From positions 49,928 to 113,927 of IMG/VR virus record IMGVR_UViG_3300045988_177018: 64,000 nt of DNA; one strand, written 5' to 3'. The DNA comes from a virus. The notes beneath the pieces were generated by a model that worked only from the letters and a program-made list of their open reading frames with translations, was not told where the DNA came from and did not search any database. How positions within the stretch are numbered: position 1 is the first letter of the stretch; every line of letters begins with the position of its first letter. The position numbers were made by a program, and so were the translations under genes. Positions 13,947-60,984 of the stretch are shown here, one piece after another.

Positions 13947-15465
13947 TATACGCGCATAGTGATATAATCTAATCATGTCCCAGAAGGTCGTGATAGAACG
14001 TGTTGTGATACGGGGAGCCGCCCCGTATGTGGGCATGTGCGCGGCCTCGGACGGACGGCAAATCCCCTTGTATTCGACCAACCCCGACATAGTGATGCGT
14101 TGGCTGTGCGACGGGTGGCGTTGCCGATACAACCAGTTGCGTTCCCGTAGAGCCAAATGGGATAAAAACCTTGGCATAAGCATTCCGTTGGGCGGGAAGC
14201 CGGACATGCGCTCCGACCGTCAGGTAAGACTGGAATGCTCGTGGCTCGCGGCCATCCCCGCAATGGTGCTGCAATCCCCGAACAGGATAGAGAACACGGA
14301 CTGGTGGAGCGCGAACAAACGTCGCAAAACGTTGAAGAAGAAGCATAGGAACCCGGGCATGACGCCCGGGTTCAAAAAACGGCGTGACGACCTGTATTTC
14401 GTCTGCTGGCACAACAAGGGCGCGAACGCGAACTACCGGCAGTTGAACCGGCATCACGGCGAAGTCGTCATCACCGGACAGAACCCCAGCGCATATCGTC
14501 TGGACGGCCAGCCGTGCCGGTACAGCATCCACATCCGCGTCCGCGTCAGCCAACCCATCCGCGACTATACGAGCGTCGGAGTGAACTGGACGAAACGAAC
14601 GCTCGTGTTCGTCAACGACCCGTTGCCGATAAACCGAGAACGCACCGGCGCGATGGTCGGATTGGACAGGGGTTGCGTGCATACGCTCGCCACGTCCGAC
14701 AATCGTTTCATCGACCTCCCCAAAGACCGGTTGAACCATATCGACAGGGAGATACGCCGCCGTCAGAAGGCTCAGGCGCGACGAATCGCCATGTCCGGCG
14801 AAACCGTCAAACAATACCGTCGCCACGCGAGCCGCACCTACGAGCGCACCGGTCGGGAAATCAGCCGACTGTACGCGAAGGCGCACCGCATCATAGACGA
14901 CTGGCAGCACAAGACCACCAGCATGCTCGTCCGCGAATACGACGTCATCGTATTGGAAGACCTCAACCTGCAAGGCATGAGCCGCAAAGCCAAGGCGAAA
15001 CCCGACCCGGACAGGCCGGGCGCGTTCCTACCCAACGGACAGTCGGCGAAACGTGGACTCAACCGTAGCCTACGCGCCGCAAGCCTCGCCGGAATCGTCA
15101 GCAAACTCGAATACAAGACCCGACTGACCGGACGAAACCGTCTCATACTCGTCAACCCCGCGTACACGTCGCAGACATGCAGCAAGTGCGGGCATTGCGC
15201 CAAGGAGAACCGCAAAAGCCAAGCGGACTTCGAATGCGGGCAATGCCACGCGCGCATGAACGCCGACTTGAACGCGGCCAACAACATCCTCGAACGGGGA
15301 TTGAACCATCTCCTCGGCTTGGACGAAGCCGGGCACGCCGAAACGGAGCCAGACGCCCAACCCGCCTATCGCGGGAAGGACGCTTCCGCCATGACGTGCG
15401 AAACCTCAACACGATAACGTGTTGGAATCCCGGTGTTTCAACACCGGGAGGACGTCAATTCGCAT
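13947..15465 (+). mobile_element. IS200/IS605-family element, TnpB-only (IS1341-like); boundaries approximate
   Basis: Carries a TnpB-like gene. Right-end hairpin cccggtgtttcaacaccggg at about 15431..15450. No tnpA. Confidence 0.5.
14206..15417 (+). CDS. tnpB: TnpB-like RNA-guided endonuclease (IS605 OrfB family), intact RuvC I/II/III and zinc ribbon
   Basis: GLDRG, LEDLNLQGM, NADLNAANNI, CSKCGH..CGQCH. The ORF is open from 13975 (480 aa) behind a gatataat -10. The N-terminal half is atypical for TnpB. Confidence 0.6.
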   Translation: MRSDRQVRLECSWLAAIPAMVLQSPNRIENTDWWSANKRRKTLKKKHRNPGMTPGFKKRRDDLYFVCWHNKGANANYRQLNRHHGEVVITGQNPSAYRLDGQPCRYSIHIRVRVSQPIRDYTSVGVNWTKRTLVFVNDPLPINRERTGAMVGLDRGCVHTLATSDNRFIDLPKDRLNHIDREIRRRQKAQARRIAMSGETVKQYRRHASRTYERTGREISRLYAKAHRIIDDWQHKTTSMLVREYDVIVLEDLNLQGMSRKAKAKPDPDRPGAFLPNGQSAKRGLNRSLRAASLAGIVSKLEYKTRLTGRNRLILVNPAYTSQTCSKCGHCAKENRKSQADFECGQCHARMNADLNAANNILERGLNHLLGLDEAGHAETEPDAQPAYRGKDASAMTCETSTR

Positions 15466-19857: not shown

Positions 19858-20017
19858 ATAACAAACCTGAAGAGACAAACCACCCTATGCGTTCACCAAC
19901 AGCCTATCCAACACCGGTTTGTCAAGGGTTCACCCACCTCTAAGGCGGGTGGTGAATTGACATAATCTTATGCTATACTGGTATTCAGTCGTACTCATCA
20001 GGAACGAGGTGATTGCT

Positions 20018-20431
20018 GTGAAACTTGAATCGAATCATCATTCGGTGTTCCTCATGCATTATCATCTCGTGCTCGTCGTGAAATACCGTCGCAAAGTCTT
20101 TGATGACACGATTTCCAATCGCGCACGGGAGATTTTCGAGTACATCGCACCCAAGTACGGCATCACGTTGGAGGAATGGAATCATGACGTGGACCACGTG
20201 CATGTCCTGTTCCGCGCCCAGCCGAAGACCGAACTGTCGAAGTTCATCAACGCGTACAAGAGCGCCAGCAGCCGCCTGTTGAAACAGGAGTTCCCCGGAA
20301 TCAGATGCAAGCTTTGGAAGGAGTGTTTCTGGAGCCGTAGCTTCTGCCTGCTCACCACGGGCGGCGCACCCGTCGAGGTGATACGCAAATACATCGAGAA
20401 CCAAGGCGAGAAGAGCCGAACCCAAGCATGA
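20018..20431 (+). CDS. tnpA: IS200/IS605 Y1 (HUH) transposase TnpA
   Basis: HYHLVLVVKYRR and HVHVLF HUH motifs. GTG start at 20018 is likely; the ORF is open from 19970. Confidence 0.8.
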   Translation: MKLESNHHSVFLMHYHLVLVVKYRRKVFDDTISNRAREIFEYIAPKYGITLEEWNHDVDHVHVLFRAQPKTELSKFINAYKSASSRLLKQEFPGIRCKLWKECFWSRSFCLLTTGGAPVEVIRKYIENQGEKSRTQA

Positions 20432-21597
20432 AGACACATATCGCCGTGAGGTTCCGCGCCTATCCCACCGAAGAACAGGCACGGCTGATAGACCGCACCA
20501 TCGGCTGCGCACGCTTCGTATACAACCTCATGCTCGAAACCCGCATCGCCCACTATCAGACCACATGGGAATCATGCCGTCCCACGCCCGCCCTGTACAA
20601 GGACACGTACCCGTTCCTACGCGAAGTGGATAGCTTCGCTCTTTGCAACGCGCAACTCGCATTGGAGAAGGCGTACAAGAGGTTCTTCGAGGACAGGAAA
20701 ACAGGTTTTCCGAAGTACAAGTCGAAACGTCGGGGCAGGAAGACATACACGACGAATCTGTCCCACGGCAACATCGAATTGGATGACAAGGCAAGGAGGT
20801 TGAAACTACCCAAGCTCGGATGGTTGGCGGTCCGCCAACACAAGCGTATCCCCGACGATTGGAAACTGAAATCCGTCACCGTGGAGCATTGTCCTTCCGG
20901 AAGATACACCGCGACAATCCTTTTCGAGTACGAGACCCAAATACCCGAAAAAGTGAGGCCAGTGAAGACTGTCGGATTGGACTACGCGTCTCACGGCCTG
21001 TATGTTTCCAGTGACGGGGAGCACGCCGAATATCCGGGCTACTATCGAAAAATGCAGGACAAGCTCGCCAGAGAGCAACGCAAGCTTTCCCATATGGTCA
21101 AAGGTTCCGCCAACTGGCGTAAACAGTGCAAGCGGGTCGCCCGACTGTATGAGAAGACCGCCAATCAAAGACGCGACTACCAGCATAAGAAAGCCAACAG
21201 GATTGTCGCATCATACGATATGGTCGGCGTGGAGGCTCTGAGCATGAAAAGCATGATGAAGAAACCCGAGCCGAAACCAGACCCCGAACGTCAGGGACAT
21301 TATCTTCCCAATGGTCGCAAAGCCAGAAAAGGTTTGGCTAAAAGCACGTCGGACAACGGGTATGGCATGTTCTGCACCATGTTGGAATACAAGCTCGCCC
21401 GTCAAGGCAAACGGTTGGTTCATGTGGGCAAATGGTATCCGTCCAGCCAACTATGCTACGACTGCGGTTACAAGAATCCTCTGGTCAAGGATTTAAGTAT
21501 CCGCGAATGGGCGTGCCCATCATGTGGAGTGTTGCATGACCGTGACGTGAACGCCGCCCGGAATATTCGGGATGAGGCAATGAGAATCATCGAATAG
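20428..21597 (+). CDS. tnpB: TnpB RNA-guided endonuclease (IS605 OrfB)
   Basis: Classic N-terminus MKTHIAVRFRAYPTEEQ..RFVYN. C-terminal CYDCGY..CPSCG zinc ribbon and RuvC III (DRDVNAARNI). Confidence 0.85.
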   Translation: MKTHIAVRFRAYPTEEQARLIDRTIGCARFVYNLMLETRIAHYQTTWESCRPTPALYKDTYPFLREVDSFALCNAQLALEKAYKRFFEDRKTGFPKYKSKRRGRKTYTTNLSHGNIELDDKARRLKLPKLGWLAVRQHKRIPDDWKLKSVTVEHCPSGRYTATILFEYETQIPEKVRPVKTVGLDYASHGLYVSSDGEHAEYPGYYRKMQDKLAREQRKLSHMVKGSANWRKQCKRVARLYEKTANQRRDYQHKKANRIVASYDMVGVEALSMKSMMKKPEPKPDPERQGHYLPNGRKARKGLAKSTSDNGYGMFCTMLEYKLARQGKRLVHVGKWYPSSQLCYDCGYKNPLVKDLSIREWACPSCGVLHDRDVNAARNIRDEAMRIIE

Positions 21598-34188: not shown

Positions 34189-35529
34189 TCAGACTTCGGT
34201 TCCGAAGTCTGCGGCCATGTCCGCGAACTTGGAGCATTCGCCCATGAACGCGAGGTTGAACGTGTCGGTCGGACCATTGCGATGCTTGGCGAGAATCACG
34301 TCGGCCTCGCCCGGACGTTCCTCACGGTCGTAGTATTCGGGACGATGCACGAGGAACACCATGTCCGCGTCCTGTTCGATGGAGCCGGATTCACGCAGGT
34401 CGGACAGTTCCGGTCTTTTGTCGGCACGTTGTTCCGAGTTGCGGTTCAACTGGGAGAGCACGACCACGGGGCATTGCAGTTCCTTGGCGAGCATCTTGCA
34501 TTGGCGGGAGAAGTTCGACACTTCCTGCTGGCGGTTCTCGACGTTCTTGCCTGAAGTCATGAGTTGCAGGTAGTCGATGACGACGAGTTTCAGCCCGTTG
34601 ACCTTGCGGTTCAGGGCGCGGCATTTCGCTCGGATGGTGCTCATGTTGATGATGGCGGAATCGTCAATCCACAATGGTGCGTGTTCGACGTGACGGCAGA
34701 GGTTGTCGAGCTTGTCCCAATCGTTCCGGTTCAAGTATTCGGGGTGTTGGAAGGATGCGAGCCGGATGCCTGTTTCCGCGGCGAACATGCGTTGCATGAG
34801 TTCGTGTCCGCCCATCTCCAGACTGAATATCACGGTGGGCAGGTTGTTGTGCAGTGCGGCGTTGCGGGCGAAGTCCATGCCGAGCGTGCTTTTGCCCATG
34901 CCCGGACGTCCGGCGACAATGACCATCTGTCCGGCTTGCAGTCCATGCGTCAAAGCGTCGATGTCACGGAAGCCGGTGGGCGTTCCGAAGTTGTTCGGAT
35001 GCTGTTGCATGTCGTCCAACTGTTGAAGCATTTCGTCGGACAACCGGTATGCGGTCTTCAGTTCGTCGTCTTCGTTCCGGCTTGCGTCCTCCAACTCGAA
35101 CGCGGCCTCCAAGGATTTGCGGAGCACGTCTTCGGCGGAAGCGTCGGTCACGCCGCTCATCTGCTGCAATTTTTGGCCGGTTTCGCCGATACGACGCAGG
35201 ATTGCCGCGTCCCTGACCTGTTTGACGAAATAGCCGCTGTTGCTTGTGGATGGTGCGGCGCTTACGAGCTGGGCTATGTAGTCGATGCCGCCGACCTTTT
35301 CCAACTCGCCGTTGTCCATCATGTGCGAGGACAGCATTTGCGCGTCCACACGGTTGTTTTCGGCCGCCAGTTCCTTGATGTTGTGGAAGATGGTCTGATG
35401 GTTCGGCTGGTAGAAATCATGTTCGGACAATTGTCCGATGACCTTGTCCAAGGTCTCAGGGTCTTGGAGCATGGCTCCGAGCACGACCTGTTCGGGCATG
35501 TCCTTATGGATTGGAGTGGTGTCGCTCAC
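34189..35529 (-). CDS. dnaB: Replicative DNA helicase DnaB
   Basis: GFRDIDALTHGLQAGQMVIVAGRPGMGKSTLGMDFA, and RecA-fold motifs throughout. Confidence 0.9.
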   Translation of the reverse strand: MSDTTPIHKDMPEQVVLGAMLQDPETLDKVIGQLSEHDFYQPNHQTIFHNIKELAAENNRVDAQMLSSHMMDNGELEKVGGIDYIAQLVSAAPSTSNSGYFVKQVRDAAILRRIGETGQKLQQMSGVTDASAEDVLRKSLEAAFELEDASRNEDDELKTAYRLSDEMLQQLDDMQQHPNNFGTPTGFRDIDALTHGLQAGQMVIVAGRPGMGKSTLGMDFARNAALHNNLPTVIFSLEMGGHELMQRMFAAETGIRLASFQHPEYLNRNDWDKLDNLCRHVEHAPLWIDDSAIINMSTIRAKCRALNRKVNGLKLVVIDYLQLMTSGKNVENRQQEVSNFSRQCKMLAKELQCPVVVLSQLNRNSEQRADKRPELSDLRESGSIEQDADMVFLVHRPEYYDREERPGEADVILAKHRNGPTDTFNLAFMGECSKFADMAADFGTEV

Positions 35530-41698: not shown

Positions 41699-42469
41699 AT
41701 GAACGAAGGAACCTACGGGTTGGAAACCATAAAAGCCGACTATCATACGATACTCGGCTACGACATCGGATACGTCACGGCGGAATCATACCCACTGTTC
41801 GCCCCATACCGTGCGAAAGACAAGCAGACATTCTCGGGACGAGTACCACGTCTGTTAAGCATCATCATCACCACGCTCGTCAACACTCCCAGCCGCGAAT
41901 GGAATGCGGAAACCAGAACCCTCACCATCGGAGAGGACTTCTTCTATCTGGCGAACAAATGCGGGTTGAACAGTGGCGGCGACGGACGAACCACGGTACA
42001 TGACCGACTGCTCATGCTCACCGAAATACAGTTCACCGACATGGATGGGAACAAGGTAACTCCCGTGTCGCATACGGACATCAGCCCGGATTTCCTGACA
42101 GTCGAGCATCGTAGAATCACATTCACGGAGCAGTTCGTCCGTATGATGACAAGAAACGTCCGCCAGCTTCCGCTGAAGTGCCTGTATCCGAACGCGGGAA
42201 GCGCCATCGGCATCGACCTGCTCGTGTTGTCCGCATTGTATTGTCCGAAAAACCATCGTCTCATCATCGAGCGTGAAGACCTTTCGTCATTGCTTCCGGC
42301 GAGCAGTCAGAGCCTTTCCACGCAAAGCCTGTTGAAGAGGTTCAAAGAGTTGAACAACAGTCAGAACGAGTGGACGTACCGGATGACGAAGCACAGTGTG
42401 ACCATCAGCCCGTTCGGCGTGTACTCGTCCGAAGATGCGATACGTTTACGTCGTAAAAACCGGTCTTGA
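41699..42469 (+). CDS. Paralog of the Rep-like protein at 56939..57880 (putative winged-helix initiator-like protein)
   Basis: Shared pattern VPRLLSIIITTL...GG...RLLMLTEIQFT vs VPRLFLLYIRTL...GG...RLLLESIKNL. Confidence 0.4.
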   Translation: MNEGTYGLETIKADYHTILGYDIGYVTAESYPLFAPYRAKDKQTFSGRVPRLLSIIITTLVNTPSREWNAETRTLTIGEDFFYLANKCGLNSGGDGRTTVHDRLLMLTEIQFTDMDGNKVTPVSHTDISPDFLTVEHRRITFTEQFVRMMTRNVRQLPLKCLYPNAGSAIGIDLLVLSALYCPKNHRLIIEREDLSSLLPASSQSLSTQSLLKRFKELNNSQNEWTYRMTKHSVTISPFGVYSSEDAIRLRRKNRS

Positions 42470-43251: not shown

Positions 43252-43524
43252 CCAGCGAACACTCCGGTCAGACAGGTTGTTAACAGTCGGAACGAGGTGT
43301 TCTGTATTTTCAATTTACGAGTGTAACGGCTTTCGCCATTCCAAAACAGAGAAAACGGGAAACAACCCTCCCTTCCAAGCCGGTAGGTTCCATCCGAAAA
43401 ACGGAACCAAGAGAAAGAGTCCGATGGCGGGAACGAAAAAACAGGAACGACGATTAGGGCATCGCCTGAAGAAGAACAGGGCAAGCCGTCCGCCGCGCCG
43501 GTAGGTCAGCATGAACAGCGGACT

Positions 43525-44265
43525 TCAAAAAAAGAGAGAAGAAACCACACTGAAAACAAAAATCCAAGAACACCATGCCATCAAAAAGAAGAACCAAGAA
43601 AAACAGAAAAGAAGAACCAAAAGAATAAAACCCGATAGGAAGAAGAGACCACATCAGAAGAAAAGAAGACAGCAACGACACAATCAAGAAAGAACACCGG
43701 TACAAGAGAAAAAAGAACAGAGGACAACGGCAGAACAAGAAGAACAATCCATACCGTAAATCAGGACACGACGTAACTAAAGAACCAAACGCAGAGCAAC
43801 CAGCCACCACAAGACAACAGGACAAGCGCATACGACCCAGCAGAGAAGAAAAGCAACAGCACCAAACACTCGAAGAGCATAAAGCGACAAACAAAAGAAC
43901 CACAAGGCAACAGGACGCAACAGACAAAAGCCCACACAGAAGAACAGACTGCAAAAACACTCGACAGCAAAAACGCAAACAGCAGAAGCCACGCCACATA
44001 AGACGGCAACAAACCCAGAGAAGAAAGAACCGGCACGCCAGCAACCACATCACAATCACAACAACGCCCCACACGGCCAACCAGACAACAAAAAGGTCAA
44101 TAGTCACACCAACAAGGTCAACAACAAACAAAACAAGGTAACATCAATACAGGAACAGCCAATGCAATGAAAAAGCAACAGCAGAACCAACCAAAAAACC
44201 AAATATCAAAAACTATAAATGCCAGAACTTGGACAAAACCGTGAACGTTCCGATGAAAACAACGG
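43525..44265 (+). other. About 0.74-kb T-depleted (A/C/G-only-like) tract on the top strand; non-coding
   Basis: By inspection T is far under 10% and A about half of bases on the top strand. ORFs in it are stop-codon-free artefacts. Confidence 0.7.
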
Positions 44266-44268
44266 AAC

Positions 44269-45483
44269 ATGACCCATCAGGAGGCGGTCTTATTGGAAAA
44301 ACGGACGATTTCCCTGATAATCGGCTCCGGAGGGCTACTTACGACCATTAAAAAAGCCCTCACAAGAGTCGGAAACATGCGCTGGCAGGTGCCCGCCGCA
44401 GACAACATCCAAGCTCAGGCCGACTATCTGGTCAGACACCCGGTGCCATCCGGGTTCAAAGGAATCATCTTCACCGACAGAGCAGGAAACTGGCTTCCGA
44501 TAGCGAACGCCGGTTATATCGTCTACTGGTGCGACACGGGGCAGATACCCGTGGGAGCCATGGGCATGAGCGAGCAGATGCTACGGATGAGTGTGGCTGA
44601 TTTCGCTCACGCGTATTGGGGAATCCAACTTGCCGACAAGCGTCTTGTGGTCGATATTCTCCAAAACAAAGTGAAGGAGACTGCGGTTCTCCTGCCCATC
44701 ACATCCAATACCGGAGGCGTCGGGAAAACCACCTCCAGCAGACAGCTGGCTGACCGTGCGTCACAGGCCGGACTGCGTGTCCTGCTCATCGACGGCAACA
44801 TTCGACAGTCCAGCCAACGTAGCTTCTTCGACCCGAAACAGGACAAGCCGTTGCATACGATAGCGGACTGGCGACCGGGCATGCAGGCGCAGGTCGGAGC
44901 CAATCGCGGACGCAATCTCGGAGTCCCATACGACATCTGCTTCGCACCTCCGGCAGGTATCGGAGTGGACTGGCAGATATACCGTCAGTACATTCAGGCG
45001 GCTAGGCGGTTATGGGATTTCGTGGTGCTCGACCTCGACCGAATCAGTGCGGACGACTTGGACGACAGGGAGAACATAGCCAACGGTCTGCTTCTCCCGT
45101 ATATTCAGTCTGGCGACCCTTGTCTGGTCATCGTCAAGGCCGGAAGACAGACGCAGATTGACGCGTTGAATCTGCTGACTGCGATGGCGGAGCATCATCT
45201 TCCGAAGGAACTCATCGGAATCAAAGACACGGTTCCGGTCGGACTGCAAGACTATCGGCGACTCGACTACACGCGGTACGGAACGTTCCTCGGAACCGAA
45301 TACCAGACGGTGGAGGCGAGCAACCATATCGCCAACGGTGATGTCCGATGGGATGACCCCGGGCTTGCCTTCGCACGGGAGAACATTCTCAACTGGGCGT
45401 TGCCCGACCGTGGCTTCAATCCTGACAGGTTCAATCCGAACGCGAACGACGATGACAGAAGGAAAGGTCGTGGACGCAGATGA
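44269..45483 (+). CDS. ParA/MinD-like P-loop ATPase domain protein (VirC1-like candidate)
   Basis: Deviant Walker A TSNTGGVGKTTSS in the middle of a 404-aa protein. First gene after the T-depleted tract. Confidence 0.5.
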   Translation: MTHQEAVLLEKRTISLIIGSGGLLTTIKKALTRVGNMRWQVPAADNIQAQADYLVRHPVPSGFKGIIFTDRAGNWLPIANAGYIVYWCDTGQIPVGAMGMSEQMLRMSVADFAHAYWGIQLADKRLVVDILQNKVKETAVLLPITSNTGGVGKTTSSRQLADRASQAGLRVLLIDGNIRQSSQRSFFDPKQDKPLHTIADWRPGMQAQVGANRGRNLGVPYDICFAPPAGIGVDWQIYRQYIQAARRLWDFVVLDLDRISADDLDDRENIANGLLLPYIQSGDPCLVIVKAGRQTQIDALNLLTAMAEHHLPKELIGIKDTVPVGLQDYRRLDYTRYGTFLGTEYQTVEASNHIANGDVRWDDPGLAFARENILNWALPDRGFNPDRFNPNANDDDRRKGRGRR

Positions 45484-49781: not shown

Positions 49782-49949
49782 CTGTCAGATTCCGGCTTGA
49801 CAAGTTGAAGTGAATCCGTTCGGAACATCCAGTTTCCGGACGGATTTTTTTAGCTTAAAAACCCCGCTATAGATGGAAACAGCCGTGTAGGTTGATAGGA
49901 TGAAGAACGCAGGAGAGTTCCGTTTGGAAAAACGAAAGGGAACTCAAAA

Positions 49950-53800: not shown

Positions 53801-54820
53801 GGCATGGCTAATGGTGACGCTCCGTTGTCGTCTCCGTTCTCCGGCACCGGTGACGGTGGTTCCGCCAATGGTGACAGTCCTATGCCTTCTCCGACAGCTC
53901 CGACTCCGAACACCCCGACCCAAACCGGTGGTGTCGGTGGCGCGTCGCCGATTCCGACTGACGCTCAGACCGAGACGATTCCGATTGACGGACAGACGGA
54001 AACGATTCCGGTGGGCACTCCAACTGAATCGGTTCCGGCCGACACTCAAGGACAACAGTCTCCGGTGTTGACCGAACAGTCCGCGTTCAATCAGGTTCGT
54101 GAGGGAATGATGGCAGATTTCACGAATAACCAGCACATGTCCCAAGAAGAAGCGGAACAAGCGTTCCAAGAGGCCGTCTCCTCCGGCGAGGTCGATAATT
54201 CCGTCCAAGCGTACATGCGCCAGAACAATCAAGCCTCTAACGAGAACGTGACCGCCCAACCTGAAGCGGACGCCAACCAGCCGGTGTACAACACCGAGAC
54301 GGGCGAGGTTGTAGGCGAGACTCTGCCGTCCGGAACAATGGACGCCGCCGTGGCCGCCGCCTCCACTTGGCAGAACGCGACCGGAAACACGACTCCGATT
54401 CCTGAATCGGTGAACAATGCGCTGCAACAGGCGTACATGCGCGAGAATCCGGTGCAGCAGTCTCCGGAGGAGCATTTGCGGATGGCGCAGGAGGAGTGGA
54501 CTAGGACGACTGGTCTTCCGGGCGATATGATGCCTGCGAGTGCGGAACGTGCCATGAATCCGAATGGAATTCAGCCGAGTAGAGAATTCACGGTTGATTC
54601 CGGTCAGACGCAACAGCAGTCTCAACCGCAGCCACAAGCTCAGGTAAGACAACAACCGTCGGTTCGAATGCAACCGCCAGCCACACCGTCTCCGACCGTC
54701 AAACCGCCGGTGGACGCCAACCCGTCAAACCTGACAGGTTTCCCCGTCGTAGGCAATCTTCGTATGAAGAAACCGCCGACCGGAGGACAGCCGACATCCA
54801 AGCCGCCGTTCATGAAGTGA
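50819..54820 (+). CDS. Large polytopic conjugation membrane protein (VirB6/TcpH-like) with disordered Pro/Thr/Gln-rich C-terminal extension
   Basis: 1333 aa. Multiple TM segments in the first about 650 aa. Low-complexity C-terminal third. Confidence 0.55.
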   Translation: MNTKYRDPVRRAGGRNLLVILMLCMVMTLFVLPDSVFAAPSDGSITTATCANGGTGGATSDIASCLPSGRWGNYVGEIISRTEPYSGSDVAGWFSNVKQTINSQMHVVLPNVLMQLTQVCWSSALSISQFAASFEPMKQAGANIDSAVATLVTSLMNGGIPATIAVLGIVAWVGAAGFQIGTVKEASKRIIIMVLCFASITILGTGAAKTGRNATEPATGSPWWVVQTINNTINKLSVNLDLDGMADGDKNMMSYYHSGDGAKTNCQDYLYYMHQAYDEQAASYGNQDTSNITKAINRIWEETSLRSWVTMQYGNPQATGTSSFRIAENARQGYCHVLEMKANTNTTIQKDLTNKAMSLHISDQRAKWLFSVDGWVDPRHPYFTDKPLERENATYLSRAGVFWETCGTKRNQEIYARSGWATLINNLGDAGTKDIKNGSTKVRVKINDLDNVKPTNGGTGLMDAKQSGTEAETIQQTTSVCQTILKQDSAIFARSSDIDKNDDGGYKDQQNNTNWGDSATVGWRFDVPNVSGTWSEANLRDAQDDSTVTGGAKKTLDYMYGNNNVDTLGACGSLLGGIVNLVVWGLLSLVLILTKLMLIMMALFLVVTFLIQAFPIGEKPKKALKNWTAYTCQLSMVGALYGALGALATFICGLTLKFTSASSGSFTYQLIAGVSPLLAFASISMFCSKVLKWGNPFSINALMGMAGGTAMASGIRTGMRMIGQHRMMQAMRGGFRRGGDGAGRLSTNGTGAGMAHSGARQSATVLSKMSRAQQEALSNGDRNLLNRSQSEFEALQSHGRKSRTWARMDANTVRGSLAGARLHMEESHDKFRQRLNTAASKFKGADNTEAFAHRIAQRHPGMSLDKVQRRAEMMNHLNNAGRALQGAARVAGAGAAMGGAGLAFAVRAAKSAPLRNVAARGAKVAAKAAVTGALFSNPITAPLGLVAAGKLAADRNLHHGLAVGAGAAMDKIRDIRNAAPGSVRERDQWRRNVLGMANGDAPLSSPFSGTGDGGSANGDSPMPSPTAPTPNTPTQTGGVGGASPIPTDAQTETIPIDGQTETIPVGTPTESVPADTQGQQSPVLTEQSAFNQVREGMMADFTNNQHMSQEEAEQAFQEAVSSGEVDNSVQAYMRQNNQASNENVTAQPEADANQPVYNTETGEVVGETLPSGTMDAAVAAASTWQNATGNTTPIPESVNNALQQAYMRENPVQQSPEEHLRMAQEEWTRTTGLPGDMMPASAERAMNPNGIQPSREFTVDSGQTQQQSQPQPQAQVRQQPSVRMQPPATPSPTVKPPVDANPSNLTGFPVVGNLRMKKPPTGGQPTSKPPFMK

Positions 54821-54923
54821 CGTCGGTTTGACCATCCGGCGTCGAATGTTTTGAAAATCTTCAGCAGCATTCGACGCCGGTTTCCCTTTCGCAAAACCTT
54901 CCGACCGTCAAGGAGATTAGAAA

Positions 54924-55277
54924 ATGGAAGAGGTAGGAAACCAAGCCGCCGATACCGCCGGGCAAACATTGGGCGACGTGCTCACCGTGTTCTTCTCATG
55001 GGTGTTCACGCCGACTGGCGCAATCCTCACACTGTTGATGATTATTATTTGCGCTGGCAGCGCCGTGTTCGCCATCTTGCAGAAAAGCACTCGCGCGTTG
55101 ATGACAGCGTTGACCATTTGCGCGTTCCTGCTGTTCGTGTGGATTATCACCGGCGTGCTGGAAGTGATGGGATTGCCGGTACGTCAGTGGATGCAGGGTG
55201 TCGCGGCTCAATTGCCGGATATCGGCTCGCTGTTCATGGAGTTCCTGCGCCGTCTGGTGTTCACCGCGACTGAATAG
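54924..55277 (+). CDS. Small membrane protein
   Basis: 117 aa with three hydrophobic helices. Confidence 0.4.
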   Translation: MEEVGNQAADTAGQTLGDVLTVFFSWVFTPTGAILTLLMIIICAGSAVFAILQKSTRALMTALTICAFLLFVWIITGVLEVMGLPVRQWMQGVAAQLPDIGSLFMEFLRRLVFTATE

Positions 55278-55507
55278 TTTTCGTCGCCGGACTTTCGGAT
55301 GCCGTGTCCGTTTTTCTGCGGGCACGGCATTTTGTTTTCCTGTTTCGCCGTTCAGCCTGTATGCCGGTTCGCCGTTTTGTCGGAACGTTGATGGAAATGG
55401 TTTTATGGTTCGGCGTGCCGACTGTTCCACGTTGTTATCCTTGATTACGAATCCATACCCCCACTATGGTTTCGTCCACACCGAAAGCCGAAAAAAGGAA
55501 CACAGGC

Positions 55508-56170
55508 ATGAGAATCAAAAACGATACGGTCATCATCACCGTCGCCATCATCAAGGGCGGTTCAGGCAAAACCACTACGGCAATGGCATTGGCCGAACTG
55601 TTGCACAAGCGCGGAGAACAAGTCACGGTCTTGGATTCCGACAACACGGGCGGCGCGACCATGTGGGAAATGTACGTCGAACAGGAAAACCGGCGACGTA
55701 AAACAGAAAACCCAGACGCGGAAGACTATCATCTCGGATTCCCCGTCATACAAACCAACGAAGCCATCCTCAACAATCCCGAACTCATCCGTGAAAAATA
55801 TTCCGGCTGGGTCATCATCGACACTCCACCATCCGACGCCGGTGTCGTACAGGCTGCGATAAACGCGGGAGACGTGGTGATAATCCCATGCCAGCCGTCC
55901 GTTTCCGATTTGACCCATGCCGGACGCACGTATGCGGCGGCACGAAACGGCATCGTCCTGTTGACCCGCGTGAAACCGCGAACGAAACTCGCCCGCAACA
56001 GCATCAGCGAACTCGACGAGGAAGGCATCGCACGATTCGAAACCGTCATCACGGAACGTGAGGCCATCAAGAACATGTATGGCACGACCGAAATCGACAA
56101 CAAGGAGTATTCCAGCGTCGTGCATGAACTCATCGACTATCTGACGGCAATCAATCTGGTGGAAGAATAA
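55508..56170 (+). CDS. parA: ParA partition ATPase
   Basis: N-terminal deviant Walker A IIKGGSGKTTTAMALA. About 220 aa. Confidence 0.75.
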   Translation: MRIKNDTVIITVAIIKGGSGKTTTAMALAELLHKRGEQVTVLDSDNTGGATMWEMYVEQENRRRKTENPDAEDYHLGFPVIQTNEAILNNPELIREKYSGWVIIDTPPSDAGVVQAAINAGDVVIIPCQPSVSDLTHAGRTYAAARNGIVLLTRVKPRTKLARNSISELDEEGIARFETVITEREAIKNMYGTTEIDNKEYSSVVHELIDYLTAINLVEE

Positions 56171-56198
56171 AACGGGAGCAGGGGAGCAGTAGACAATC

Positions 56199-56687
56199 AT
56201 GGTCAAGAACATCAGACGCAACGCCTTCGCCACGGGGTTGCAGGACAAGCGTGACATGCGCCCATTGGAGTCGCCGGAGATTGAACAATCGACGCCGGTC
56301 GTGGAACCACAGGCCGGACAGTCGATGCAGGAGCCGACGGCCATGGTCCAACCACAGGCTCCGATGGAATCGCAGAACATTCCGACAGCCGTGCAGACGC
56401 CCGTCCAGCCGGTCGTCGCACAATCCATGCCTCACAACGTGGAGCCGACACAAGCCGTTCAACAACAACCGCAACCAGCCACCGCCATTCAACCGGAAAC
56501 GCACCAGCCGCCGAAAGAGAAACGAATCGGAAGCAACGTCACCGTCGAGAACTGGCGTGCATGGAAGATGAGAAGCATCGAATACGGGACGAAACAGGCT
56601 GTCCTGTTGAACGCCGCGATGGACTACTGCTTCCAGCAGGGACATTTCGACCAGTCGCTCATCGACAAGTACGAGCAGAAGGATTAG
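56199..56687 (+). CDS. ParG-like ribbon-helix-helix centromere-binding partner
   Basis: Disordered Pro/Gln-rich N-terminus. C-terminal RHH-like KRIGSNVTVENWRAWKMRSIEYGTKQAVLLNAAMDY. Confidence 0.45.
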   Translation: MVKNIRRNAFATGLQDKRDMRPLESPEIEQSTPVVEPQAGQSMQEPTAMVQPQAPMESQNIPTAVQTPVQPVVAQSMPHNVEPTQAVQQQPQPATAIQPETHQPPKEKRIGSNVTVENWRAWKMRSIEYGTKQAVLLNAAMDYCFQQGHFDQSLIDKYEQKD

Positions 56688-56938
56688 GCTCCGGTATACT
56701 AATATCCGGATGAACAAAAGACTTCATCGAAGTCTTCCAGATGGGGCGGCGCTCACAACAGAGCGGACGCCCCATTGGTTTTTCTAACGCGGGAAGAATT
56801 TTTTAATTCCGCAGTAAAAAGGTTCTTTACATATACGCTGAGGTGGTTATGGTGTAGGCTTGCCGATAGAAAAACAAAAGCCCCGCGCTGGTGGAACAGC
56901 CGGGGCAGGGCAACCAGAGACTTAAGGAAAGTGGTTAC

Positions 56939-57880
56939 ATGGGTAATTCTATCAGACCCATCGACAGTGACAGTTATCGGTATGCTCCCTCCGTGATGTC
57001 CCAGCTCAGTTTCTTTCCCGCACGCAAACCTGACGTGAATTACATCAAGAAGACCAACGGGCGTTCCGCAATCATCATCACTCCGACTGAAGGTAAGTGG
57101 GCGTATGGTTCTGTGCCCCGATTGTTTCTTCTTTACATCCGTACTTTGACTAAAAACAAAGACTCTCGGGTCGATTTCGAAAGCATGACTGTGAACCTTG
57201 GAGGAAGCTATCGTGCCATGTGTGAAGCGATGGGTGCTTCCACCGGTGGGAAAAGCAAACGTCTTCTCCTTGAATCAATCAAGAATCTTGCTTGCACCCA
57301 TATAACATTGGAACATTGGGTGTCGGATGATAACGGCATGTATGAGAGTTTCCCGGTAGCACAGAAAGTATGTATTGATTTTGGTGGTGAGGATAAGGAA
57401 TCCTATATTACGTTCTCCCCTCAAATGTGGTCTCTGCTAATGGAGGAAGCCGTTCCTACTCAAATGTCCATCATCAGGAACATATCCAATTCTGCACTCG
57501 CTTTGGATATTTACATGTGGTTGGCTTTCCGAGCCAATAAGCTACGCTCGTGCGGAATGAAAGTCCCGTGGAAAGACCTAACCGTTCAGTTCGAGGACGA
57601 CGACTATCCGGTCAAAGAATTCAAAAGACGATTCACGACAGCCCTGAACAAAGTCAAGGAATCATGGCCTGAATTGAAGGCAAGTCTTGATGAATATGAC
57701 ATAACCATCTATCCAAGCATTTCGTCCATTCATTCCAACGGCAAGATTGTGGACGCTGTTGTTGTGGAGGAAGAATCGGATTCCTGCAACGAACCTGTAA
57801 TTAAAGCGGACGTCTCATGCAATTCGGAACAAAATGATTCATCGACAGATGATATAAGGAATGCCGCTAATCCTTTTTGA
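56939..57880 (+). CDS. Plasmid replication initiator (Rep), low-GC gene
   Basis: Iterons immediately downstream. LDIYMWLAFRA-type motif. GC clearly lower than its neighbours. Confidence 0.55.
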   Translation: MGNSIRPIDSDSYRYAPSVMSQLSFFPARKPDVNYIKKTNGRSAIIITPTEGKWAYGSVPRLFLLYIRTLTKNKDSRVDFESMTVNLGGSYRAMCEAMGASTGGKSKRLLLESIKNLACTHITLEHWVSDDNGMYESFPVAQKVCIDFGGEDKESYITFSPQMWSLLMEEAVPTQMSIIRNISNSALALDIYMWLAFRANKLRSCGMKVPWKDLTVQFEDDDYPVKEFKRRFTTALNKVKESWPELKASLDEYDITIYPSISSIHSNGKIVDAVVVEEESDSCNEPVIKADVSCNSEQNDSSTDDIRNAANPF

Positions 57881-58030
57881 CGAAAACGTGGACGATAGTA
57901 GGGATGGAAGAAATGGTTCCACTTCTTCCAACTTTCTGTGTCAAAAATTCCAATTCGAGAAAATGCCATCTCAAAAAGACTTCAAATATTTTGATTTTTT
58001 AATCAAGGTATATATTTTTGCATATTTTCT

Positions 58031-58093
58031 AGTGTGGACTTTTCCCACCAAAGTGTGGACTTTTCCCACCAAAGTGTGGACTTTTCCCACCAA
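58031..58093 (+). repeat. Iterons: 3 perfect tandem copies of agtgtggacttttcccaccaa (21 bp)
   Basis: Direct reading. Followed by caaaaggtta x3 (58136..58165) and an A+T-rich stretch to about 58330. Confidence 0.8.
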
Positions 58094-58516
58094 AAAGTGC
58101 CCTCAGCCCTACTGCCACAAGGGGTTTCAGCGCCGCAAAAGGTTACAAAAGGTTACAAAAGGTATTAATAACCCTTATATTCCCTTCTTTTTAAAAAAAC
58201 AGGTTTTTCCAAAAAGAAGCAAAAAATCAAAAAACAGAATAAAACCATTTTTCGGATTCCACGTTTGGTCAGGTCTAAACCCGCTTAAAGGGTATCCTCA
58301 ATGCTTTTAGAAAAAATCAAGTCACGTGAACGTTAGACATGTCCGAATGCTTTCGACGGAAGAGAGAAAAAGAAAAGTTCCGGAAAAAGAAAAACAGAGA
58401 AGCCGACATCGGCGGCAGACACTTTTCTGAAAACCTCGAAGACGGTGAAAACAACCTCCGATGAACGGTAGACTGGAGGATGCAAGTCAGACGAAAAACG
58501 GATTCGGAGCGGGACT

Positions 58517-59776
58517 GTGTTCGGAAACAAGAAAGACAAGAACGGCAATCAGCCGATGGGTCAGCCGAAGGCGTGGCAGAGTCCGAACAATGAGACCGAC
58601 CTGTTCGCCGACGAGAAGGAACGCAAGAACGAGATAGAACTTACCGCTTGGAAGAAGGCGTTGAAGAACACTCGGAAGTGGAAGGTTCTCATCGTCCTGT
58701 TCGTCTGCACCGGTCTGGTCGCGCCGATGATTTCCGTCCGTGCAATCAACACGTTGACCGACATGGGTTCCTACCTGACGGAGAAGTACAAGGAAATCAG
58801 CGGCGACAAGCCCGGCAAGCAGGTCGCGTTGCAATCCGTATACGGTTGGTTGGATGACGACAACGGCGCGTTCCAATACGGGTATGCGAACCTGTGGTGG
58901 AACGGTGCTACTGAAGTGGGCACTTCCACTTTGGACGGTTCCGATGGGGAGACCACCCAATATTGGAGCCACCAGATGTCCCTCACCGACAAGTCGGACG
59001 GAAGCACGAGGGACATCACCCAGCTTGTCGCCGTCACGGACGGAGTGGCTACTGCGGTGGGAACGCCGACCGTGCTGCCCAAGACCGTCACTTCGACCAG
59101 CGGCACCGACACGTATCGTCCCGACGGGTACGTTCAACTTGACCAGAACACGAGCCTGACGACCGTGGTCGGCGCGTGGGCAAAAGCGTACGTCGGCAAG
59201 GACCCCAACGCGTTGACCGTACTTGTCGGAGACCCGAACAGCGAGCACGTGTACCAGCCAGCAAGCTTGGGTTCGTATCTGAACTCGTCCATCGAATGGC
59301 TGGTGCAATGCACCAAGGACGGCAAGGTCGTTGACAAGAAGAACAAGTCCGACAATCCCGAATGGGCGGCGGCGAGCGTCAGCATCTCGTTCAAACCCTA
59401 TGAGAAGAAGGTTGACGCGAGTGCCGCGAACAATCCAAGCGCGGACATCAAGTCGGTGAGCAACGTGGATACGAGCGTCACGGTTCTTATCCACAATCCG
59501 ACCCGTGGCAGCGCGAAAATCGTTGACTGGGGTGCGGAGGGCAGTCTGACCACGTTGAAGGCGTTCAACAATGCCATCGACCGTTCTCTGATTGGCTCGT
59601 CCGGCAGTGACGACGAGGAGGATACGGCGTCCGATTCCGGTTCGTCGGATTCCGCCAACGGTGTAGGCGGCTCCGGTTCGTCCGACGTTCAGACATCCGA
59701 TAGTGGCGACGGCCAAACCCAGAATTCAGATGATGGTTCCGTCACCGGAGACCCCAATGAGGGGTCGAACGACTAA
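58517..59776 (+). CDS. Membrane-anchored extracytoplasmic protein (VirB8/TcpC-like candidate) with acidic Ser/Asp tail
   Basis: 419 aa. Single TM near aa 55-75. Confidence 0.4.
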   Translation: MFGNKKDKNGNQPMGQPKAWQSPNNETDLFADEKERKNEIELTAWKKALKNTRKWKVLIVLFVCTGLVAPMISVRAINTLTDMGSYLTEKYKEISGDKPGKQVALQSVYGWLDDDNGAFQYGYANLWWNGATEVGTSTLDGSDGETTQYWSHQMSLTDKSDGSTRDITQLVAVTDGVATAVGTPTVLPKTVTSTSGTDTYRPDGYVQLDQNTSLTTVVGAWAKAYVGKDPNALTVLVGDPNSEHVYQPASLGSYLNSSIEWLVQCTKDGKVVDKKNKSDNPEWAAASVSISFKPYEKKVDASAANNPSADIKSVSNVDTSVTVLIHNPTRGSAKIVDWGAEGSLTTLKAFNNAIDRSLIGSSGSDDEEDTASDSGSSDSANGVGGSGSSDVQTSDSGDGQTQNSDDGSVTGDPNEGSND

Positions 59777-59958: not shown

Positions 59959-60984
59959 ATGTCTAAGAAGAAAGGCGGGATGTCCGCCGGTTCCCTGCTT
60001 GGCGGCATTCTGGTCGTGTTGACGGCCATGGTGCTCATCGTGAACTTGGGATTGTGGAAGCCCATGTCGCAGATTTTCGGACTGCCGGAAATCAATGACT
60101 TGTCCCAGTTGATGCCGGGGGAGGATTCCAAGGTCAAACCTGATGTGAAACTGGGGTTGAAGGAGCCTTCCTTGAAACCGTCCGACTCCAATACGCGGAC
60201 AAACACTCCAGAAGCCACGGAAACGCCCTCAGAATCGACGCAGACGCCAAACGGGGACAATTCCTTAAGTCAGGAACAAACGGCCTCTACAAGCGTCCCT
60301 GAAGGCGCTTTAAGCCCCATCACCACGCAACAGGCGCTCGACAGGCTCTCCAACATCGAAACCGCCGTCCCCCACACCAAAGGCTACGACCGCAAAAAAG
60401 ACTTCGGCACATGGCAGAACAGCAGCCAACTATGCGGCTACGGCACCACGAGAGACTACATCCTCAAACGCGACATGTCCGACGTGACCATGGACAAGAA
60501 CTGCAAAGTCCTCACCGGAACCCTGCAAGACCCGTACACCGGCAAGACCATCAGATTCCAACGCGACACCTACGAGACCGTCGGCGGCAAGCAGAGGAAG
60601 ACCGGCGGAGACAGCATGTCCGTTCAAATCGACCACGTGGTCGCCGTCAACGACGCTTGGGCCAGCGGCCTATGGAAGGATTCACGCAAAGGTGACCGCA
60701 TCGCCTACGCGAACGACCCGGAAGTGCTCGTCGCGTCCGAAGGCGAGGCCAACAACGTCAAACAGCAGGGCGTGAACCTCGTGAGGGACGAGGCGTTGAA
60801 CGGCTCCAAGACCAAATGGCAGGACGGCACTCCAAGCGTGTGGCTTCCATCTAACAAGACGTACCAATGCTCGTACATGGCGAAGCGCGTGTACATCAAA
60901 GACAAGTACAAGCTGTCCATGAGCGGTTGGGAGAAGGCGGAGACGAAATCGTTTCTTACGCAGTGCGTTGCGGACGGGAGCTGA
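59959..60984 (+). CDS. Membrane-anchored secreted His-Me finger nuclease-like protein (DUF1524/GmrSD-C-like)
   Basis: N-terminal TM. QIDHVVAVNDAW motif. Confidence 0.5.
   Translation: MSKKKGGMSAGSLLGGILVVLTAMVLIVNLGLWKPMSQIFGLPEINDLSQLMPGEDSKVKPDVKLGLKEPSLKPSDSNTRTNTPEATETPSESTQTPNGDNSLSQEQTASTSVPEGALSPITTQQALDRLSNIETAVPHTKGYDRKKDFGTWQNSSQLCGYGTTRDYILKRDMSDVTMDKNCKVLTGTLQDPYTGKTIRFQRDTYETVGGKQRKTGGDSMSVQIDHVVAVNDAWASGLWKDSRKGDRIAYANDPEVLVASEGEANNVKQQGVNLVRDEALNGSKTKWQDGTPSVWLPSNKTYQCSYMAKRVYIKDKYKLSMSGWEKAETKSFLTQCVADGS

Follow-up and report, generated by a model that had tools for sequence, protein, structure and literature searches.

A Rep-iteron module of the pMP7017 RepA lineage beside parAB on a multi-Rep Bifidobacterium megaplasmid: origin or auxiliary replicon?

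Does a replication gene with an orderly set of repeats beside it mark the place where a plasmid begins to replicate? The question is raised by a locus in a 64,000-nucleotide stretch of DNA, the whole of which we call the window (positions 49,928 to 113,927 of IMG/VR virus record IMGVR_UViG_3300045988_177018), in which rep, a gene for an initiator of the RepA_C family, is followed by three perfect 21-bp repeats and by A+T-rich DNA. An earlier note on this DNA took the locus for a textbook iteron-type theta origin (oriV). We find that it is a well-formed Rep-iteron module of a known lineage, that of RepA of the Bifidobacterium breve megaplasmid pMP7017, and that it lies on a megaplasmid with several Rep genes. 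The reading we prefer, at a probability of roughly one half, is that the module is an intact RepA-type initiator-iteron cassette, held in a fixed but exchangeable slot beside parAB, and that it serves as a secondary or auxiliary replicon and as an incompatibility or specificity module, not as "the oriV". That it is accessory to a RepB-type replicon seems to us likely. That it can fire as an origin on its native plasmid we think a little less likely than not. It is probably not the plasmid's main origin.

The module comprises the following features. Labels from L001 to L156 denote the relative contigs and loci that were compared with the window.

56939..57880, plus strand: rep, encoding a 313-amino-acid (aa) RepA_C-family initiator of the pMP7017 RepA lineage (Pfam, sequence identity, AlphaFold2, Foldseek, and dN/dS, the ratio of nonsynonymous to synonymous substitution rates)
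57915..57953, plus strand: single degenerate copies of other alleles' 22-mer iterons, GGTTCCACTTCTTCCAACTTTC and TGTGTCAAAAATTCCAA (read against the Tandem Repeats Finder (TRF) units of L010, L013 and L001)
57952..58031: AT-rich stretch 1, a candidate unwinding region (joint least stable 80 bp; 82% A+T over 60 bp)
58031..58093, plus strand: three perfect 21-bp copies of AGTGTGGACTTTTCCCACCAA, very probably iterons (TRF, mismatch scan, arrays of relatives)
58097..58122, plus strand: conserved 26-nt core GTGCCCTCAGCCCTACTGCCACAAGG (scan of RepA-type loci, RepB-type loci and other contigs)
58136..58165, plus strand: three phased 10-mers, CAAAAGGTTA, CAAAAGGTTA and CAAAAGGTAT (TRF; A-tracts spaced 10 bp)
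58163..58242: AT-rich stretch 2, a candidate unwinding region (joint least stable 80 bp)

The initiator

The rep gene starts with ATG, 8 nt downstream of the Shine-Dalgarno sequence AAGGAAAG. Its product matches Pfam RepA_C (PF04796) over residues 56-204 at 47.7 bits, where the gathering cut-off is 26 (E 2.8e-12); its database homologues share the domain, and no other gene in the window is a clear RepA_C gene. The best plasmid match is pMP7017 RepA, at 37.8% identity (E 9e-51), as against 23% (E 2e-16) for pMP7017 RepB. NCBIfam has no model for Rep, nor for the ParB-like and 419-aa proteins described below, and a sequence search of solved structures with the Rep family profile gave nothing significant.

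An AlphaFold2 model of Rep was built from 31 homologues, with a mean predicted local distance difference test score (pLDDT) of 78.5 and a predicted template modelling score (pTM) of 0.77. Its top Foldseek matches were RctB domains 2-3 (E 3e-8) and RepE/RepE54, at probability 1.0 and template modelling (TM) scores of 0.4-0.6, and the RepE matches include complexes with iteron DNA and with DNA of the unwinding element (DUE). Rep is predicted from this model to have the double winged-helix (WH1-WH2) fold of iteron initiators such as RepE and RctB. The earlier note's identification of a Rep gene is thus borne out: it is a RepA_C replication-initiator homologue with a predicted structure like that of iteron initiators. 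Between alleles, dN/dS is 0.09-0.27, which indicates that the gene is kept by purifying selection.

The repeat array

TRF reports AGTGTGGACTTTTCCCACCAA as 3.0 perfect copies at 58031-58094, and a scan of the 64 kb for the 21-mer with up to 3 mismatches found three sites only (100 shuffles gave 0), so that the three perfect repeats first seen at 58031-58093 are confirmed by both methods. The array, about 150 bp past the rep stop and about 1.1 kb from the rep promoter, has what is expected of iterons: at least three direct repeats of about 17-22 bp, in helical phase, adjoining a rep gene. Is it real? Three perfect copies are also present in 17 other, independently assembled contigs that span the whole array (L022, L023, L033, L036, L040, L045, L049, L057, L087-L095), and so the array is no assembly artefact. 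One mismatch is found in the first copy in L058/L091, the MEGAHIT contigs L002 and L044 have 2 copies each, L006 has 4, L007 reaches its contig end within a fifth (TRF 5.0), and the Logan contigs all stop 9 nt into the second copy (L003-L005, L046-L048, L050). The apparent copy number varies with the assembler, and the contig from which the window comes shares an end point with that of L002, from which it differs by one 21-bp unit.

Whose sites are the 21-mers? In L013 the ParB-like protein encoded upstream of rep is 91% identical to the window's, Rep is 47% identical, and the repeat is an unrelated 22-mer (CGTGTCGAAAGTTCCAACTTTC x3). In L023, L033, L044, L045 and L049 the ParB-like protein is 61% identical, Rep about 95%, and the 21-mer is identical. 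The repeats follow the Rep allele and not the ParB-like allele, which supports their being iterons and rejects a partition centromere. From this co-variation of sequences, we consider it very probable that the 21-mers are the binding sites of Rep.

Several smaller sequence matches were considered along with the array. The central 4 bp of the iteron are GGAC or GTCC, varying between alleles whose iterons are otherwise identical; a DnaA-box-like GTCCACA within the iteron was rejected, since these 4 bp vary and boxes are not enriched. An 11-nt inverted half-iteron inside the rep coding sequence (57245-57255) was put down to chance, as no relative conserves it, and a search of the 250 bp upstream of rep for inverted partial iterons that might serve autorepression found no iteron-derived match of at least 9 nt. 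An open reading frame (ORF) that crosses the iterons (57861-58310, 149 aa, GC content at third codon positions (GC3) 0.40) was treated as non-coding.

Short repeats stand on both sides of the array. Directly after the rep stop come the two degenerate 22-mers, whose counterparts are the iterons of L010-type and L013-type alleles; matches counted by eye are 17/22 for the one and about 13-14 of the first 17 positions for the other, and the second resembles the core GTGTCAAAATTC of the A-repeats of pMP7017. On the far side is the triplet of 10-mers, first described as three copies at 58136-58165, which TRF gives as 2.8 perfect copies of CAAAAGGTTA at 58136-58163, with CAAAAGGTAT as the third unit. 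The 10-mers hold the orientation of the plasmid backbone in every allele of the par slot and are conserved in L006, L010, L013, L029 and L035; analogous short-repeat triplets lie beside the arrays of the paralogous modules examined.

Base composition and melt-prone DNA

In 500-bp steps over 57001-58500, GC content is 0.46, 0.42 and 0.41, the window mean being 0.547, and in windows of 1.5 kb the sequence as a whole reaches its lowest GC at about 56.9-58.4 kb. The rep gene, at GC 0.455 and GC3 0.497, has the lowest GC of the 62 called ORFs (mean 0.550, standard deviation (sd) 0.026; GC3 mean 0.671, sd 0.075). The fall in GC that had been described at this locus is therefore genuine, from a background of 0.547 and not from the roughly 0.60 then supposed. 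The two least stable 80-bp stretches in the 64 kb, 57952-58031 and 58163-58242, bracket the iteron array, each at -90.4 kcal/mol against a mean of -118.1 (sd 6.0), or 4.6 sd under the mean. By composition alone, then, AT-rich DNA of the kind sought in an unwinding element adjoins the iterons. Stretch 2 contains a 17-nt inverted repeat (58184-58200 / 58203-58219) and is 77-95% conserved in L010 and L013.

Did rep come from a lineage of lower GC, as was also suggested? Import from a lower-GC pool is plausible. The gene is low in GC (0.445-0.471) in the alleles of the window, L004, L006, L008 and L010, but not in that of L013 (0.536) or in pMP7017 repA (0.570). Other RepA-type paralogues have a lowish GC3, 0.53-0.65.

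Cumulated over the window, GC skew is lowest at about 16 kb and highest at about 60 kb, which places the module near the maximum. From 17 to 60 kb the trend is unaffected by gene orientation. The 16-kb minimum adjoins a TnpB insertion, and neither a Rep gene nor an AT-rich region is found there.

The plasmid and its several Rep genes

The proteins of the window are 35-67% identical to those of pMP7017, and the part of the window from 41.7 to 61 kb runs collinear, in reverse, with pMP7017 54.8-36.3 kb. Among the genes are those for a VirB4-like ATPase, a cell-wall hydrolase, a replicative DnaB and two ParA-like proteins, together with TnpB elements. The plasmid to which the window belongs is a conjugative megaplasmid of the pMP7017 type, about 170-225 kb in size, and comes from human-gut Bifidobacterium. 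The exact Rep is found on metagenome contigs of up to 89.9 kb. Contigs of 128-225 kb carry other members of its 90% cluster, whose identity to it is about 95% in those examined. As to species, the NCBI labels on the RepB-type proteins of this plasmid population are one Bifidobacterium adolescentis and one multispecies Bifidobacterium. PLSDB contains no near-identical DNA, and a protein search of the GTDB species genomes found no close relatives; a scan of the same genomes for the DNA core had one match, on a contig of a Bifidobacterium angulatum metagenome-assembled genome (MAG). Nothing specific was found in the literature on a B. adolescentis megaplasmid.

What is known of pMP7017 bears directly on our question. 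The plasmid (KM406416) encodes two RepA_C proteins, RepA and RepB (Dineen et al. 2021, PMC8313286). Replication requires RepB, and RepB together with its 17 downstream iterons and an AT-rich region is enough to support it (PMC8313286). RepA is accompanied by a 35-bp palindrome, an AT-rich region and, on its upstream side, eight repeats; when repA and these repeats were tried as an autonomous replicon no transformants were obtained, and disruption of the gene was possible (PMC8313286). RepA is nonetheless highly conserved and binds its promoter repeats cooperatively in electrophoretic mobility shift assays, and its documented activity is autoregulation of its promoter (PMC8313286).

How do the two lineages stand to each other on plasmids of the window's type? 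IMGVR_UViG_3300029338_000174 (217,099 bp) has a window-type Rep (95% identical, 3 x 21-mer), a RepB-type gene and two more RepA-type paralogues (loci L059, L094, L118, L131). IMGVR_UViG_3300029044_000314 (184,918 bp) has the same set of a 95% Rep, a RepB-type gene and two further RepA-type paralogues (L064, L090, L120, L148; other such loci lie within L087-L156). The co-resident RepB-type gene is 56% identical to pMP7017 RepB. These two relatives, with their 95%-identical Rep and the same iterons, make accessory status likely for the window's module. More widely, megaplasmids of about 170-220 kb carry one RepB-type gene and 3-5 RepA-type paralogues each, the latter sharing 32-48% identity with the window's Rep; in pMP7017 there is a single RepA and a single RepB. 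Of 70 RepA-type loci in IMG/VR, 62 have a 21-22-bp array of their own, of 2.6-7 copies, and one locus (L144) has two tandem RepA_C genes.

The slot beside parAB

The module and its neighbours form a slot with conserved flanks.

55466..56170, plus strand: ParA-type partition ATPase, left conserved flank (Pfam AAA_31, CbiA and ParA; synteny with pMP7017)
56199..56687, plus strand: small ParB-like or adaptor ORF, 162 aa (position after parA; partial likeness to pMP7017)
56788..58097: variable cassette of rep promoter and leader, rep, spacer and iterons (comparison with L008, L010 and L013)
58517..59776, plus strand: 419-aa gene, right flank (54% identical to the syntenic pMP7017 gene)

The gene order is a 1333-aa gene, a 117-aa gene, parA, the 162-aa ParB-like gene, the Rep cassette, the 419-aa gene, a 44-aa ORF (called in relatives) and a GmrSD_C-like gene. 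ParA is 57% identical to its syntenic counterpart in pMP7017, and matches NCBIfam ParA_partition at E 1e-30, under the curated cut-off. The 162-aa protein has no Pfam or NCBIfam match, and its C-terminus alone resembles the product of the pMP7017 gene downstream of parA; the 419-aa protein has no significant Pfam match. In pMP7017 the same flanks are present with no rep between them.

The cassette has probably been exchanged. The flanks, 54800-56784 and 58098/58108-60000, are 77-96% identical to those of L008, L010 and L013. Inside the cassette, rep is 81% (L008) or about 67-69% (L010, L013) identical and lies in the opposite orientation. With L008 and L013 the flanks are 94-96% identical, yet synonymous divergence (dS) in rep is 1.2 against L008 and saturated against L013; such near-identical flanks around a highly diverged gene point to allele replacement. 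In L008 and L009 (Rep 78%) rep and its promoter alone are inverted, the iterons keeping the backbone orientation. Within IMG/VR, 9 contigs have a window-type allele in the par slot, co-oriented with par, and 14 have inverted alleles of 44-48% identity (the inverted or swapped alleles compared were L008/L009, L010-L013 and L096-L109). The array lies upstream of rep in 53 of the 62 IMG/VR arrays, that is, in all but the 9 of window type, and also in L008-L013; in the window it lies downstream.

Is the module an origin?

How might the module work? Rep, as a double winged-helix protein, would bind the three 21-bp iterons, as the co-variation of the two suggests. The array lies between two unstable AT-rich stretches, beside the 26-nt core and the phased 10-mers, in what would be the layout of an iteron origin. 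The architecture suggests that bound Rep would melt the adjoining AT-rich DNA and that a helicase would then be loaded; the plasmid encodes its own DnaB. A conserved leader structure or an antisense RNA would probably regulate the synthesis of Rep at a post-transcriptional step.

The anatomy favours such a function, for the 10-mers and the AT-rich flank are 77-95% conserved across alleles. Further, promoter autoregulation alone cannot explain why the iterons have stayed perfect, since they lie downstream of rep and about 1.1 kb from its promoter. Together with the exchangeable slot and the co-resident RepB-type genes, these are the grounds on which we prefer an intact auxiliary cassette.

A number of findings weigh against that preference. 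No RepB homologue lies inside the window, and the plasmids on which co-residence with RepB is seen are relatives with a 95%-identical Rep, not the 89.9-kb contig to which the window belongs. Each plasmid has three to five Rep-iteron modules, more than one would expect of active origins. There is no match to the DnaA box TTATCCACA with up to 1 mismatch at 57.88-58.52 kb, and the window-wide count is that of chance. Among relatives, only pMP7017 repA, together with its upstream repeats, has been put to the test, and it did not replicate autonomously (PMC8313286). Finally, the skew peak at about 60 kb by the module, with the minimum at about 16 kb, is more terminus-like than origin-like if the leading strand is G-rich, the window being a fragment.

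The alternative that survives best is a RepA module that does not fire. Rep would bind the repeats without initiating, and the locus would be an autoregulated DNA-binding, copy-control or incompatibility determinant, acting by handcuffing or titration, or else a retained remnant. Such a role has been proposed for pMP7017 RepA (PMC8313286), and the behaviour of that protein, which binds its repeats cooperatively and is highly conserved although its fragment does not replicate and its gene can be disrupted, speaks for it. So do the several paralogous modules on each plasmid and the lack of an origin signal in the GC skew at the module, and the high allelic turnover at the par slot would suit a specificity or incompatibility determinant. 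Why, in that case, is the DUE-like architecture of short triplet repeats, core and array present in every paralogue class examined? The two least stable stretches of the sequence bracket the window's array, the window-type iterons are perfect although uncoupled from the promoter, and the core is also found by an unrelated Prim-Pol replicase gene, which suggests a component of an origin. The version in which the module is a remnant is made unlikely by the dN/dS values. On balance we think a non-firing module possible, but rather unlikely.

The view first taken, that the locus is the plasmid's principal iteron-type theta origin and Rep its essential initiator, appears improbable. It has in its favour the classical layout of a basic replicon, with Rep, three iterons, AT-rich DNA and adjacent parAB, and the fact that this is the sole clear RepA_C gene in the 64-kb window. 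Part of it stands: the 21-mers co-vary with Rep, and AT-rich DNA flanks them. "Textbook oriV" is too strong, for Rep belongs to the RepA and not the RepB lineage, RepB-type genes share plasmids with a 95%-identical allele, no DnaA box is found, and the skew maximum is nearby. Moreover, pMP7017 replicates without any rep in its par slot, and the slot takes very different alleles, in either orientation, on flanks 94-96% identical.

That the 21-mers are instead a centromere (parS/parC) of the adjacent ParA/ParB-like system can be dismissed as most improbable: direct repeats beside a small type-I par operon are typical of centromeres and the array is 1.3 kb downstream of the ParB-like gene, but the repeat is unchanged at 61% ParB-like identity and wholly different at 91%, RepA-type paralogues off the par slot have equivalent arrays with no ParA/ParB-like gene within about 3 kb, and pMP7017 has the par genes without the 21-mer array.

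A conserved core beside the array

In the window, the 26-nt core (GTGCCCTCAGCCYTACTGCCACAAGG; 23-nt form CCCTCAGCCYTACTGCCACAAGG) amounts to a palindrome's left arm and its loop; pMP7017 and other elements have the palindrome in full. An approximate core, with up to 4 mismatches in the 18-nt centre, accompanies nearly every RepA-type module examined, in either orientation. At RepB-type loci it is absent save for one 4-mismatch match. The segment AGCCCTACTGCCAYAAGG adjoins the repeats both in the window and in pMP7017, where it lies upstream of repA and inside the palindrome.

The core is also found outside RepA modules (L019, L020, L024-L028, L030-L032, L034, L037-L039; L021). In many gut contigs it is a perfect palindrome, with CCTAACGC repeats on either side, upstream of a Prim-Pol/DUF5906 replicase operon. 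The core so associated is also on the B. angulatum MAG contig, there with a different replicase, and in one AT-rich, unrelated contig it is present as 3 x 54-bp tandem units.

Might the core, with the short-repeat triplet and AT-rich DNA, act in Bifidobacterium mobile elements as a "universal origin core" recognised by the host, into which interchangeable initiator-iteron cassettes are set? What prompts the idea is that the core accompanies RepA-type paralogues of any iteron sequence, skips RepB-type origins, and recurs by the Prim-Pol/DUF5906 operon and as the 54-bp tandem. We offer it as a speculation that is unlikely to hold. If it were true, these megaplasmids would have several conditionally used origins with one common host-factor or priming site.

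The rep leader and a candidate antisense RNA

Two overlapping features precede the rep coding sequence.

56881..56938, plus strand: conserved rep leader with two hairpins (allele conservation, folds)
56870..56973, minus strand: candidate antisense countertranscript of about 65-70 nt (promoter and terminator scan, folds)

Hairpin 1 of the leader is at 56881-56905 (CCCCGCGCTGGTGGAACAGCCGGGG); hairpin 2, at 56910-56938, has the rep Shine-Dalgarno sequence (56924-56931) in its loop. Alleles with proteins 47-88% identical share the conserved leader, which pMP7017 repA keeps in part; the leader is better conserved than the Rep protein. Its consensus fold has 3 compensatory pairs, and the single-sequence fold has z = -4.1. 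On the antisense strand there is a promoter-like CTGTCA, 16 nt, TG-n-TAGAAT (56973-56946), a loop complementary to the Shine-Dalgarno sequence, and a terminator-like hairpin with a U-run at 56897-56870. The antisense extended -10, which lies over rep codons 3-5, is retained in all alleles despite amino-acid differences. No countertranscript or other RNA family in Rfam matches the leader/antisense region. The arrangement suggests a small countertranscript, of about 65-70 nt, that would control rep translation.

Neighbouring genes and other observations

Another gene of the window also bears some likeness to rep.

41699..42469, plus strand: remote RepA_C-like backbone gene, outside the module (pairwise and profile comparison, pMP7017 orthologue)

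The earlier note had called it a paralog of rep. This does not hold, since the product is a remote homologue only, 22% identical to Rep over 142 aa (pairwise E 5e-5; profile comparison probability 88%), with no Pfam match. It is a conserved backbone gene, 37% identical to its pMP7017 orthologue B7017_RS00315. Between this gene and the second ParA-like gene (44269-45483), and adjoining both, is a tract of about 800 bp at 43450-44250, between divergent genes, that is nearly without T on the plus strand (AT skew up to 0.82, GC 0.43).

The DnaB helicase gene (34189-35529, minus strand) matches Pfam DnaB_C at E 2e-97 and is 54% identical to pMP7017 dnaB. TnpB genes of IS200/IS605 type lie at 13975-15417 and 19970-21597, the second with an upstream TnpA-like ORF, and copies 86-87% identical adjoin RepB-type genes in other contigs (L054). 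The GmrSD_C/DUF1524-like gene (59959-60984), which has an N-terminal membrane anchor, follows the module at a distance of about 2 kb; paralogues 37-42% identical to this gene lie about 1.4-3.5 kb from several other RepA-type modules (L112, L113, L116-L121, L123-L127, L151, L152, L155).

Comparison with known systems

The nearest known system is the RepA module of pMP7017 (repA 96166-97215). The two share a RepA_C protein, direct repeats at 21-bp spacing, the core segment by the repeats, a short AT-rich repeat triplet, a leader hairpin and the plasmid backbone. They differ in that the pMP7017 repeats (A1-A8, with 15-bp cores) are upstream and overlap the repA promoter, whereas the window's three 21-mers are downstream; in that pMP7017 repA adjoins FtsK-like genes and the window's rep is in the parAB slot; and in that pMP7017 repA has a host-like GC of 0.570, the window's rep 0.455. 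The pMP7017 gene is dispensable and not autonomous by experiment; what we know of the window's gene comes from its sequence.

The RepB replicon (repB 119397-120394 with iterons B1-B17) is the experimentally proven origin of pMP7017. It too has a RepA_C domain, iterons downstream of rep and an AT-rich region, which is needed for replication, and its copy number is low (PMC8313286). In contrast to the window's module, its Rep is only 23% identical to ours, its 17 irregularly spaced 20-mers have the core GGnCnAnnR, and it has no core motif. Near pMP7017 repB lies a tRNA and tmRNA array; no tRNA is present in the window. Plasmids like the window's have a RepB-type orthologue elsewhere.

In predicted fold Rep is like the initiators of the classical iteron theta replicons (mini-F RepE/ori2, R6K pi, pPS10 RepA, RK2 TrfA) and RctB of Vibrio cholerae chromosome 2. 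The module resembles those replicons also in its tandem iterons, about 21 bp long and spaced by two helical turns, its adjoining AT-rich DNA with short repeats and its adjacent rep. It differs in that Rep belongs to Pfam RepA_C, not Rep_3, and has no sequence-level match to solved Rep structures, in having neither DnaA boxes nor an iteron-like inverted repeat at the rep promoter, and in that several paralogous modules occur on each plasmid. DnaA boxes and inverted partial iterons at the promoter are common in iteron theta origins, though DnaA boxes are not universal.

Several Reps on one plasmid are familiar from multi-replicon plasmids such as IncF plasmids with FIA, FIB and FII, where one replicon carries the load and the others diverge and recombine. 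The present plasmids are alike in being large and conjugative, with several Rep genes of one family. They are unlike in that 3-5 RepA-type modules have a common core and leader, and that one of them is in a fixed slot with allele replacement and inversion.

Significance

What does the locus mean for the bifidobacterial plasmids? Human guts commonly contain bifidobacterial megaplasmids, and the genus has few replicons that can serve as genetic tools. One lesson is that a locus with Rep and iterons may look like the textbook case without being a working origin. The RepA lineage poses a puzzle in pMP7017, where the protein is highly conserved and binds DNA, and yet is dispensable. The present plasmids give testable ways into this puzzle: alleles swapped and inverted in a fixed slot next to par, several RepA-type modules, most with arrays of their own, and a common core and leader. 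A module that fires would add a compatible, low-copy second replicon to those that vectors can use; one that does not would be a natural case of iteron modules retained for control or incompatibility.

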